Below, in pieces: positions 1,209 to 45,144 of a DNA stretch of 64,000 bases (the stretch's first letter is position 1; every line of letters begins with the position of its first letter). The notes under the pieces are model-generated. The model did no database searches. It was given only the letters and a program-made list of their open reading frames with translations, and had not been told where the DNA came from. Where the stretch lies: the NCBI RefSeq assembly GCF_044324875.1, contig NZ_CP172185.1; one strand, given 5' to 3'. A program made the translations under genes and the position numbers. This DNA is from Escherichia coli. Its GTDB lineage: Bacteria; Pseudomonadota; Gammaproteobacteria; Enterobacterales; Enterobacteriaceae.

Positions 1209-2372
1209 TTAGCGGGCGGCTTCGTATATACGGCGGCTGACATCCAGCGTAATGTCATGATTTTCGCCCAGTTGGGTCATGCCGTGCTCTTCCAGTTTTT
1301 TCAGCAAAGCCGGGATGGAGCTGCCGTCCAGACCGTAGTCGGAGAGGTGGGTAGGCACGCCTAATTGCTCAAAGAAATTGCGGGTTGCGGCAATCGCGGC
1401 GTCAATACGCTCATCGTCGGAACCTTCAGTGATGTTCCAGACGCGTTCAGCATATTGCAGCAGCTTAGCGCGCTTGGTATCGCGTTTTTCATTCCACAGT
1501 GCAGGCAGGACGATAGCCAGTGTTTGCGCGTGATCCAGACCGTGCATCGCAGTCAGTTCGTGGCCCAGCATATGCGTTGCCCAGTCCTGCGGTACGCCAG
1601 CGCCAATCAAACCGTTCAGCGCCTGCGTCGCCGCCCACATAACGTTGGCGCGCACATCGTAGTTTTCTGGCTCTTTCAGGGCTTTCGGACCATCTTCGAT
1701 CAGCGTCAACAAAATGCCTTCTGCGAAACGGTCCTGAATTTTGGCATCAACCGGTTTGGTAACATACTGTTCCACGGTGTGTACAAAGGCGTCCACTACA
1801 CCGTTAGCCACCTGACGCGGCGGCAGGGTGTAGGTATAAACCGGATCGAGCACGGCAAATACGGGCTGAACATGGGCAGAATGGAACGCCTGCTTGTCGC
1901 CTGTGGTTTTACGGGAGATCACCGCACCTGCGTTGGATTCTGAACCGGTTGCTGGCAGCGTCAGCACACAGCCCATCGGGATGGCGCTTTTAATCTCTTT
2001 ACCGCCCGTTTGCAGAATGTGCCACGGATCGATATTTTCCGGATAGTTAGCCGCTGCGGCGATAAATTTGGTGCCGTCCAGTACAGAACCGCCGCCAACT
2101 GCCAGCAGGAAAGTCACTTTTTGTTCGCGAACCAGTTTCACGGCGTTCATCAGCGTTTCATAAGCCGGGTTTGGCTCAATACCGCCAAATTCCAGCACGT
2201 CCATGCCTTTCAGGGCATCCAGAACTTGATCGAGAACGCCGGTTTTTTTCACGCTGCCGCCACCGTAGGTAATCAATACGCGAGCATCGTGAGGAATTTG
2301 TTCGCGTAAACCAGCGATTGCGCCTTTACCAAACAGAATGCGGGTTGGGGTGTGCAGATTAAAGTTGTTCAT
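1209..2372 (-). CDS. yqhD: NADPH-dependent aldehyde reductase (iron-containing alcohol dehydrogenase family)
   Basis: ORF 1209..2396; known N-terminus [17 protein letters not shown] begins 8 codons into the track ORF, giving 387 aa; forms the yqhD-dkgA pair. Confidence 0.93.
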
Positions 2373-2508
2373 TACTTGCTCCCTTTGCTGGGCCAATATG
2401 AGGGCAGAGAACGATCTGCCTGATGTTTTTCATTGTGATCGCCAGCGCCCTGGCTCTCAATGCTCATTTCTGCCAATGTCTTGCCTATTTCTCCAGAGTG
2501 CTGGAGAA

Positions 2509-3465
2509 ATGCTACAAAATTGCGCACAATCAAATTGCCGCATTATTCCTAAGAAATTACGCGATATGAAACGTGAAGAGATTTGCCGCTTGCTGGCGGA
2601 TAAAGTTAATAAACTGAAAAATAAAGAAAATAGTTTGTCAGAACTGTTGCCCGATGTGCGTTTGTTGTATGGCGAGACGCCTTTCGCACGTACACCGGTG
2701 ATGTACGAGCCTGGCATCATAATTCTCTTTTCCGGACATAAAATCGGTTATATCAATGAACGCGTGTTTCGTTATGATGCCAATGAATACCTGCTGCTGA
2801 CGGTGCCGTTGCCGTTTGAGTGCGAAACCTATGCCACGTCAGAGGTGCCGCTGGCAGGGTTGCGTCTCAATGTCGATATTTTGCAGTTACAGGAACTGTT
2901 GATGGACATTGGCGAAGATGAGCATTTCCAGCCGTCGATGGCAGCCAGCGGGATTAACTCCGCCACGTTATCAGAAGAGATTTTATGCGCGGCGGAGCGG
3001 TTACTCGACGTGATGGAGCGACCACTGGATGCGCGTATTCTCGGCAAACAGATCATCCGCGAAATTCTGTACTACGTGCTGACCGGACCTTGCGGCGGCG
3101 CGTTACTGGCGCTGGTCAGTCGCCAGACTCACTTCAGCCTGATTAGCCGCGTGCTGAAACGGATTGAGAATAAATACACCGAAAACCTGAGCGTCGAGCA
3201 ACTGGCGGCAGAAGCCAACATGAGCGTATCGGCGTTCCACCATAATTTTAAGTCTGTCACCAGCACCTCGCCGTTGCAGTATTTGAAGAATTACCGTCTG
3301 CATAAGGCGCGGATGATGATCATCCACGACGGCATGAAAGCCAGTGCGGCAGCGATGCGCGTCGGTTACGAAAGCGCATCGCAATTTAGCCGTGAGTTTA
3401 AACGTTACTTTGGTGTGACGCCGGGGGAAGATGCGGCAAGAATGCGGGCGATGCAGGGGAATTAA
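2509..3465 (+). CDS. yqhC: AraC/XylS-family transcriptional activator of yqhD-dkgA
   Basis: ORF 2338..3465; protein from [24 protein letters not shown] (codon 58 of the track ORF) gives 318 aa; C-terminal AraC-type HTH region; divergent from yqhD. Confidence 0.88.
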
Positions 3466-3504
3466 ATACGTTCCCGGTACAGCAACCGGGAACGGGGAAA
3501 ATCG

Positions 3505-6914: not shown

Positions 6915-6949
6915 ATGCCCGGTTGCTTTTCACAACCGGGCATTTTTTT
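6915..6949. terminator. bidirectional rho-independent terminator between convergent exbD and yghA
   Basis: Inverted repeat ATGCCCGGTTG / CAACCGGGCAT with 8-nt loop, followed by TTTTTTT. Confidence 0.5.
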
Positions 6950-10637: not shown

Positions 10638-10755
10638 TAGGTTTATCTCTTACGGGATTACGTCTTAAACAAGCATGAAAAAATAGCGTGCGCAAAAGTC
10701 GTTCTTTGCCTAAAATATCGCTATATATGGCAATATATAGCGAATGAGGTGAACG

Positions 10756-17182: not shown

Positions 17183-17516
17183 GTTGTCGCTTTGCCAGAG
17201 CGCCGTTGAAATTATCCAACGGCAGGCGGAGCAGCACGATGTTAAGCGCGTCACCGCCGTGTGGCTGGAAATTGGCGCGCTCTCCTGCGTTGAGGAGAGC
17301 GCCGTCCGTTTTAGTTTTGAAATTGTCTGCCACGGAACGGTGGCGCAAGGGTGCGATTTACATATCGTCTATAAACCCGCCCAGGCCTGGTGCTGGGATT
17401 GCAGCCAGGTGGTGGAGATTCATCAGCACGATGCGCAGTGTCCGCTCTGTCATGGCGAGCGGTTGCGTGTCGATACCGGCGATTCGCTGATCGTCAAAAG
17501 TATTGAAGTTGAATAA
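17175..17516 (+). CDS. hybF: hydrogenase nickel-incorporation protein (HypA paralogue)
   Basis: Start MHELSLCQSAVEII (codon 19 of track ORF 17121..17516), 113 aa; CxxC...CxxC zinc motif. Confidence 0.9.
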   Translation: MHELSLCQSAVEIIQRQAEQHDVKRVTAVWLEIGALSCVEESAVRFSFEIVCHGTVAQGCDLHIVYKPAQAWCWDCSQVVEIHQHDAQCPLCHGERLRVDTGDSLIVKSIEVE

Positions 17517-20792: not shown

Positions 20793-20827
20793 CCCTGCAC
20801 TGATTATGAAGAATAATCAGTGCAGGG
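20793..20827. terminator. strong stem-loop downstream of gss (perfect 15-bp inverted repeat)
   Basis: CCCTGCACTGATTAT gaaga ATAATCAGTGCAGGG; no clear U-tract, so terminator function is uncertain. Confidence 0.35.
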
Positions 20828-45117: not shown

Positions 45118-45144
45118 GCCGGATGATCGTTAATATCATCCGGC
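45118..45144. terminator. hairpin after glcA (end of glc operon)
   Basis: GCCGGATGAT cgttaat ATCATCCGGC, perfect 10-bp stem. Confidence 0.45.

Follow-up and report, generated by a model that had tools for sequence, protein, structure and literature searches.

In Escherichia coli, the DNA between the divergent genes yqhC and yqhD holds a perfect palindrome, one arm of which reaches into the ATG from which yqhC is annotated to start in K-12. This raises the question of what the palindrome is for, and whether translation of yqhC begins inside it at all. We addressed this in a stretch of 64,000 nucleotides of E. coli DNA (the window), the dkgA-yqhD / yqhC / yghB / metC region, in which the NC_000913.3 position equals 3,157,727 - w for window position w. 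The dyad reported in the initial annotation, CTCCAGAGTGCTGGAG, is present at 2491-2506 (16 bp), but that description understates it: the full repeat is 24 bp long, with two perfect arms of 10 bp each (ATTTCTCCAG on the left and CTGGAGAAAT on the right; Table 1). The right arm covers the A and the T of the K-12-annotated ATG. As had also been pointed out, the end of GGAG lies 2 nt from this ATG, whose frame encodes 318 aa and ends at 3465, and GGAG is too near to act as its Shine-Dalgarno (SD) sequence. Pairing with the anti-SD would leave a gap of 1-2 nt before the codon at 2509, which is too close by established SD spacing, and GGAG is therefore unfit as an SD for 2509. Two alternatives had been put forward, namely that the dyad is an operator or that the true start lies downstream, at MKREEIC. 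These are not mutually exclusive. We lean, with slightly more belief than doubt, towards a composite reading in which the palindrome joins the end of a YqhC half-site to the -35 element of yqhC, leaving the ATG at 2509 within the promoter spacer and putting the start of yqhC at 2566.

Table 1. Features of the yqhD-yqhC control region, in window coordinates
Feature	Position	Strand	Basis
yqhD, aldehyde reductase gene activated by YqhC, divergent from yqhC	1209..2372	-	ORF list and annotations
Published yqhD promoter: -35 TTGAGA 2460..2455, -10 CACAAT 2437..2432, TSS C ~2425	2432..2460	-	literature, scan, conservation
Putative proximal YqhC-type half-site CTCAATGCtCATTtCTGCCaA (unit CTCAATGCaCATTcCTGCCgA), overlaps yqhD -35 TTGAGA	2456..2476	+	conservation, 21-bp repeat
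Putative distal YqhC-type half-site TGTCTTGCCtATTTCTCCAGA (unit TGTCTTGCCcATTTCTCCAGA); 3' part is the palindrome left arm	2477..2497	+	conservation, 21-bp repeat
Perfect 24-bp palindrome; arms 2487-2496 and 2501-2510, spacer AGTG 2497-2500	2487..2510	.	window scan and literature
Predicted yqhC -35 TGGAGA, inside invariant CTGGAGAA (2501-2508)	2502..2507	+	conservation, sigma70 matrix
K-12-annotated yqhC start ATG, 318 aa; not conserved, probably unused	2509..2511	+	NC_000913.3
Predicted yqhC -10 CACAAT, 17-bp spacer, predicted TSS near G2537	2525..2530	+	conservation; hexamer identical to published yqhD -10
SD position for 2566: GGAG 2553-2556 in most genera, UAAGAAA in Escherichia	2550..2556	+	orthologs
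yqhC CDS from the conserved start, MKREEIC..., 299 aa plus stop	2566..3465	+	conservation, PGAP, homolog N-termini, domains

The palindrome is not explained by chance. A search for perfect inverted repeats (arms of 10 bp or more, loops of 3-8 nt) returned 10 in the window, against 0.4 expected per simulated window; the 10 include several overlapping registers of one repeat, and several are terminator-like by position. A dispersed repeat such as REP can be dismissed for the yqhC palindrome: no second copy of the 24-mer occurs in the window, even when 3 mismatches are tolerated, and the 328-bp locus around it is single-copy in nearly all E. coli genomes. A Rho-independent terminator was likewise ruled out, as there is no T-run on either strand and none was called in a scan of 2300-2700. 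Inspection by eye also excluded a small ORF led by GGAG after the right arm, since no conserved start codon follows GGAG.

To determine where yqhC starts, we compared 80 orthologous enterobacterial loci from Escherichia, Citrobacter, Salmonella, Klebsiella, Raoultella, Enterobacter, Kosakonia, Kluyvera, Lelliottia, Trabulsiella and other genera (81 sequences in the start-codon and pairing counts). The ATG at 2566, which encodes Met20 of the K-12 frame, is invariant (80/80 loci) and lies 190-198 bp from the yqhD ATG. The codon at 2509 is ATG in only 9 of the 81 sequences and something else in the other 72, with T2510 found in 19/80 loci and G2511 in 23/80. Furthermore, 61 of the 81 sequences have an in-frame stop codon between 2509 and Met20, and 41 of the 81 lack any upstream start codon in an open frame before Met20. 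Within Escherichia, the ATG and its open frame are retained in four of the five other lineages sampled, and the fifth (L004) carries ATA at 2509 together with an in-frame TGA. Substitutions in the 57-nt extension in this genus are spread over the three codon positions (4/3/3, as against 41/17/246 in the CDS; Fisher p = 9e-4), with a third-position rate of 4% compared with 21% in the CDS. Judged by this pattern, the evolution of the 57-nt stretch within Escherichia is not that of a coding sequence.

More distant relatives gave the same picture. The N-termini of 119 full-length homologs (35-57% identity) align to Met20, with a median offset of 0 and quartiles of -2 to +6, and database orthologs are mostly 299 aa long, the E. 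coli entries having 318, 355 or 375 aa. In both other E. coli genomes inspected, the PGAP (RefSeq) start is 2566, giving 299 aa, while NC_000913.3 has 318 aa. Ahead of 2566, the orthologs show a median anti-SD pairing energy of -6.1 kcal/mol with a gap of 5-10 nt; the value for E. coli is -1.3 kcal/mol, a poor SD. Genome-wide experiments add little at this gene. No initiation signal for yqhC appears in Ribo-RET and no YqhC entry in TRAINSPOTTER N-terminomics; among the INRI-seq calls listed there is no site at Met20, and there is a weak out-of-frame GTG 7 nt downstream of it (+64 from 2509; 8.5 CPM, 3 of 5 replicates). Taken together, the comparative data strongly support initiation of yqhC translation at ATG 2566 rather than 2509, in agreement with the downstream start suggested by the initial annotation, and they indicate that the annotated ATG, which is not conserved, is probably unused. 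In this, yqhC resembles other genes with misannotated N-terminal extensions: different annotations place it at 375, 355, 318 or 299 aa, former use of the 375-aa start is evident from a Keio primer, and the family-consistent PGAP start falls on the conserved ATG. It differs from the usual case in that the spurious start appears to lie inside the gene's own promoter, where it overlaps a published regulatory palindrome.

We next asked how the palindrome itself behaves across orthologs, scoring its 10 proposed pairs on a gap-free alignment of the 81 sequences (69 distinct). This revealed that 83% of the cells in the alignment are paired, and that the covariation score (0.023) is close to the shuffled mean (0.021), with 59 of 500 shuffles reaching the observed value. 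A single pair has changed on both sides, as happens in shuffles. Among the 69 distinct sequences, pair 2487:2510 is broken in 51, 2496:2501 in 30 and 2493:2504 in 18 (26-74%). All 80 loci carry the right-arm core CTGGAGAA unchanged, while the inner left arm is free to vary, so that variation in the arms is confined to the left arm and the outer edge. Full 10-bp symmetry is found only in Escherichia; outside this genus the outermost pair is in most cases lost, and inner pairs are frequently lost as well. A core symmetry of 5-7 bp is universal in the family sample, the core TTTCT(C)C/G(G)AGAAA being kept across Enterobacteriaceae. Because covariation equals that of shuffles and variation is one-sided, the alignment indicates that pairing as such is under no detectable selection and that each arm is conserved for its own reasons. 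The matched changes in both arms that characterize a symmetric dyad operator were not found.

These results bear directly on whether the palindrome acts as RNA. If a promoter overlapping the yqhD start gave yqhC a long leader, the palindrome could fold there into a hairpin that hides GGAG and the AUG at 2509, so that a 318-aa isoform would be made in Escherichia at a low level or conditionally. The E. coli 24-mer folds at -12.5 kcal/mol, its stem appears in both the minimum-free-energy and centroid folds, and it buries GGAG and two bases of the AUG, much as in translational operators and RNA thermometers that sequester an SD or a start codon. In addition, YqhC-dependent fluorescence has been reported for a PyqhC-GFP fusion that stops at 2508 and has the start codon of GFP where the annotated ATG would be (PMC8262776). 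This fusion lacks the -10 element proposed below, and its YqhC-dependent GFP implies that, on a plasmid at least, some transcripts begin upstream of the palindrome; a weak promoter-like site lies there, at 2338-2365, and retention of the ATG and its frame in most Escherichia lineages fits as well. We nevertheless consider a leader hairpin very improbable. The ATG is absent and the frame closed in most sequences, one Escherichia lineage included; the extension has no codon-position bias; the SD spacing is too tight; and there is no Ribo-RET signal. The pairing lacks compensatory substitutions, the stability of the hairpin is uneven among orthologs (-2.9 to -15.3 kcal/mol), and a scan of 2250-2750 gave no match to an Rfam family. 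Unlike in known sequestering hairpins, the buried AUG is not the conserved start, and the palindrome is probably upstream of the main yqhC transcription start. A narrower version, confined to Escherichia, in which a minority transcript from the upstream promoter yields a 318-aa proteoform with 19 extra N-terminal residues and the 10-bp stem, having become perfect in this genus, gates AUG 2509, has an equally slight chance of being correct; if true, yqhC would have two promoters and two starts, with a hairpin choosing between them.

Turning to DNA-level explanations, the palindrome has been described before. Frazao et al. reported a 'SoxS-like sequence as well as a 24-bp palindrome' upstream of yqhD as the proposed YqhC target, and another paper gives the predicted YqhC site as a '24-bp palindrome consisting of two 10-bp repeating units'. 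The yqhD promoter is given by Frazao et al., citing Lee et al. 2010, with -35 TTGAGA, -10 CACAAT and C as the start base, which puts the palindrome at about -62 to -85 of yqhD. In gSELEX, YqhC gives a single peak, within the yqhC-yqhD spacer, and in EMSA it shifts a probe covering 2374-2523 and leaves a control at ~2265-2403 unshifted, from which an EMSA-positive interval of 2404-2523 can be deduced (primers from PMC8262776).

The most conserved part of the spacer extends well beyond the palindrome on its left. Positions 2454-2494 are almost invariant across the 80 loci, TTGCC and ATTTCT being near-invariant in the distal unit, and a divergent E. coli strain with nine differences over 2373-2700 has 0 of them inside 2454-2642. 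Within this block two units 21 bp apart agree at 12 of 21 positions. The self-match of the E. coli sequence at an offset of 21 bp is 13/21, the highest value among offsets 8-30; the consensus matches at 14/21, and 30 of 2000 shuffles reach this, which is moderate support. Offset 21 also ranks top in two distant loci, L085 (12/21) and L086 (10/21), and a third, L084, has no peak there. The regulators of these three loci are 49-57% identical to YqhC; that of L084 lies beside an Fe-ADH gene and that of L085 is divergent from a Zn-ADH gene. Read in the reductase sense, all three share with E. coli the cores '..AGAAAT-nn-GGCAA..' and '..G-n-GCATTGA(-35)', and nothing in any of the three corresponds to the right arm.

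We infer from this conservation that 2456-2476 and 2477-2497 are YqhC half-sites, the 3' part of the distal one being the left arm of the palindrome. There are two direct units of ~21 bp, and the proximal unit overlaps the yqhD -35, placing the pair at about -31 to -72 of yqhD. A half-site pair with the proximal unit at the -35 is the classical AraC/XylS layout. Lee et al. 2010 reportedly mapped a binding-site mutation. The protein is of the matching kind: Pfam identifies AraC_N at residues 47-197 and HTH_18 and HTH_AraC at 219-307, an AraC-type double helix-turn-helix domain, and a sequence search of the PDB matches YqhC to the DNA-binding domains of MarA, SoxS, GadX, Rns and AraC. That AraC-family proteins bind direct repeats is stated in a published abstract on the family. 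YqhC resembles AraC at araBAD (I1-I2), RhaS, XylS and MelR, which are AraC/XylS-family proteins with an N-terminal sensing domain; at AraC-type promoters, too, two ~21-bp direct-repeat units are found with the proximal one over the target -35, and the regulator gene is divergent from the adjacent promoter. There are differences from AraC at araBAD, in that no distal looping site is known for YqhC, its effector is a set of aldehydes acting directly or indirectly, its half-sites are deduced from conservation instead of footprinting, and its autoregulation appears to be positive where that of AraC is negative.

A comparison with the marbox of MarA, SoxS and Rob is less apt. The YqhC DNA-binding domain is homologous to those of MarA and SoxS, part of the site has been called 'SoxS-like', and GCAC-N7-AAA occurs on the yqhD strand of the E. 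coli palindrome. The marbox consensus is AYnGCACnnWnnRYYAAAY, an asymmetric 20-bp box bound by a monomer. The E. coli match has several mismatches and falls in the variable loop (2497-2500, commonest base 36-66%), and the palindrome was accordingly rejected as a marbox. Moreover, YqhC differs in carrying a large AraC_N domain, and its conserved signal is a two-unit repeat rather than a single box.

The literature's suggestion, in which all 24 bp of the palindrome serve as the YqhC operator, or as a third and inverted YqhC site, must be weighed against the direct repeats. A dimer would bind its arms symmetrically, centred around -73 of yqhD and also over the front of yqhC, and would thereby activate yqhD and autoregulate yqhC. 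The palindrome falls within both the EMSA probe and the gSELEX peak, the symmetric core and the high proportion of paired cells are kept across the family, the E. coli loop supplies the GCAC-N7-AAA motif, and some AraC-family proteins can use inverted repeats (PMC9723621). Against this, the arms are unequally conserved and show no compensatory changes, the GCAC-bearing loop is variable, distant relatives keep the direct-repeat blocks without the right arm, and the near-invariant 2456-2485 would be left unexplained. A full third half-site in the right arm was ruled out because GGCAA, the most conserved part of the half-site, is missing after CTGGAGAA, which is the only matching portion. We therefore regard this alternative as unlikely. 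Of the operator idea in the initial annotation, what survives is the left arm, as part of a conserved YqhC-type half-site; the dyad itself is not preserved, and the right arm is better explained as the -35 of yqhC itself.

This last element came from the right arm. TGGAGA lies inside the invariant CTGGAGAA, and CACAAT follows it at a spacing of 17 bp in all 80 loci. All 80 loci have C2525, A2526 and T2530, 91% have G2537, which lies 7 nt beyond the hexamer, and the distance from CTGGAGAA to Met20 is 65 nt in 79 of 81 sequences. TGGAGA is probably the -35 of yqhC's own promoter, since TGGAGA-N17-CACAAT mirrors the TTGAGA-N17-CACAAT of yqhD. When scored with a simple sigma70 matrix, it was the best plus-strand site in 58 of the 80 loci and ranked third or better in all of them; with the same matrix, the mapped yqhD promoter, used as a control, was the best minus-strand site in 80/80. 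In E. coli the candidate reaches 6.4 bits, compared with 3.9 for the next-best site in 2250-2566, the weak candidate inside yqhD mentioned above. Its spacing falls within 16-18 bp and its -10 has A2 and T6. It matches the consensus at 8 of 12 positions, below the scan tool's threshold of 9/12, and so would fit a weak or activator-assisted promoter. The supplements of Cappable-seq, ROSE and Kim et al. 2012 contain no usable yqhC start site, the ROSE entry for yqhC being an intragenic 5' end only. A published account calls the yqhC promoter unknown and suggests positive autoregulation, and constitutive yqhC mutants have raised yqhC mRNA.

Two further readings were considered. In one, a symmetric dimeric regulator other than YqhC would use the dyad as its operator, repressing yqhC, modulating yqhD or both, without YqhC taking part. 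The perfect symmetry and fixed position in E. coli, a right arm invariant over 8-9 nt, which exceeds the need of a -35 hexamer alone, and reports of CRP and other inputs on yqhC/yqhD would fit such a factor. We identified no candidate protein or matching known consensus, however, the symmetry is lost across genera, and a YqhC-type half-site already accounts for the left arm, making this reading improbable. It is also conceivable, with a chance we rate as small, that the perfect 10-bp symmetry is a coincidence of adjacent elements that has no function as a unit, and that ATG 2509 is a lineage-specific accident. The confinement of full symmetry to Escherichia is consistent with this, as is the fact that the T and the G that make the ATG are minority states. 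This reading is nonetheless largely contained in our composite explanation, from which it differs only in claiming that nothing depends on the symmetry, and the universal 5-7 bp core symmetry may or may not be selected.

In the composite explanation, which in our judgement accounts best for these data, the palindrome is neither an RNA hairpin nor a true dyad operator. Its left arm (ATTTCTCC...) would be the end of the promoter-distal YqhC half-site, one of two direct repeats 21 bp apart, and a YqhC dimer on 2456-2497 would span yqhD positions from about -31 to -72, in the manner of AraC at PBAD, and activate yqhD-dkgA. Its right arm, CTGGAGAA, would carry the -35 of a weak sigma70 promoter for yqhC with a start near 2537, and on that assumption the K-12 ATG at 2509 lies in a promoter spacer and is not a start codon. 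Bound YqhC would end 4 bp from the yqhC -35, which could explain the reported positive autoregulation.

Neither the palindrome nor the corrected start is new, the first having been published in papers and the second being in use in PGAP, and in that sense the finding is mostly ordinary. Its main use lies in the case it makes for correcting the K-12 reference start, and in offering a map of the shared yqhD-yqhC control DNA that can be put to the test. In NC_000913.3, YqhC is still given as 318 aa, with 19 leading codons that probably belong to the promoter, and at least some protein-expression and deletion constructs rest on longer yqhC starts; the Keio yqhC deletion, designed on the 375-aa ORF, removes the yqhD promoter. 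Knowledge of the conserved control region (2454-2530) and of the start at 2566 should help in the design of YqhC/PyqhD aldehyde sensors and clean knockouts. In biological terms, the layout suggested here is one AraC-type dimer between mirror-image promoters (TTGAGA/TGGAGA-N17-CACAAT), an arrangement that is tidy and unsurprising.

At least four different starts of yqhC, giving proteins of 375, 355, 318 and 299 amino acids, are found across annotations, and in one listing the length of K. pneumoniae KPN_03430 is 765 nt. Since the Keio primer follows the 375-amino-acid version, the Keio deletion of yqhC also takes out the yqhD promoter and the first yqhD codons. [quoted passage not shown] Within the yqhC coding region, a 5' end is recorded at 2785 (NC_000913.3 3,154,942) in the ROSE in vitro run-off dataset.

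Coordinates of yqhC starts, operator cores and inverted repeats
Feature	Positions	Source or remark
yqhC start positions	2338-2340, 2509-2511, 2566-2568	alternative annotations
yqhC, 375 aa		Keio JW5849 primer; also used in some GenBank entries
yqhC, 318 aa		NC_000913.3
yqhC, 299 aa		PGAP
Distant operator-core regions	L084 876-937, L085 2365-2426, L086 566-627	
Inverted repeats, arms ≥10 bp	1125-1148, 3469-3494, 6916-6942, 10718-10743, 17277-17302, 20797-20823, 45118-45144	

The yqhD leader carries a stem-loop at its 5' end (2403-2420, stem GGCAGA/TCTGCC), spanning roughly +6 to +23 relative to the mapped start; the position of the stem is kept in orthologs, with differing sequences. Read on the plus strand, it was flagged as terminator-like by a scan tool because of a T-run (2426-2430) that is specific to E. 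coli. Together, stem-loop and T-run could block transcription out of the yqhD interior toward yqhC.

The yqhD -10 is itself overlapped by TGTGA (2434-2438), which resembles a CRP half-site. Among the 80 sequences of the alignment, just 2 have A at position 2438, and 74 have G. According to a review, CRP represses both yqhC and yqhD.

Besides the palindrome between yqhD and yqhC, seven other sites in the 64,000-nt window hold perfect inverted repeats whose arms are 10 bp or longer, one of them in the yqhD-dkgA and one in the yqhC-yghB intergenic region. From where they lie, several of these repeats resemble terminators or hairpins between cistrons.

At three distant loci (L084, L085 and L086), the regulators carry an AraC_N domain and share only 49-57% identity with YqhC. 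These YqhC-like proteins adjoin different reductase genes, encoding an Fe-ADH in the same direction or a divergent Zn-ADH. 'GGCAA ... GCATTGA' operator cores are still recognisable at all three, and at L084 the CACAAT -10 is also kept, about 17 bp downstream of a TTGAAG -35.
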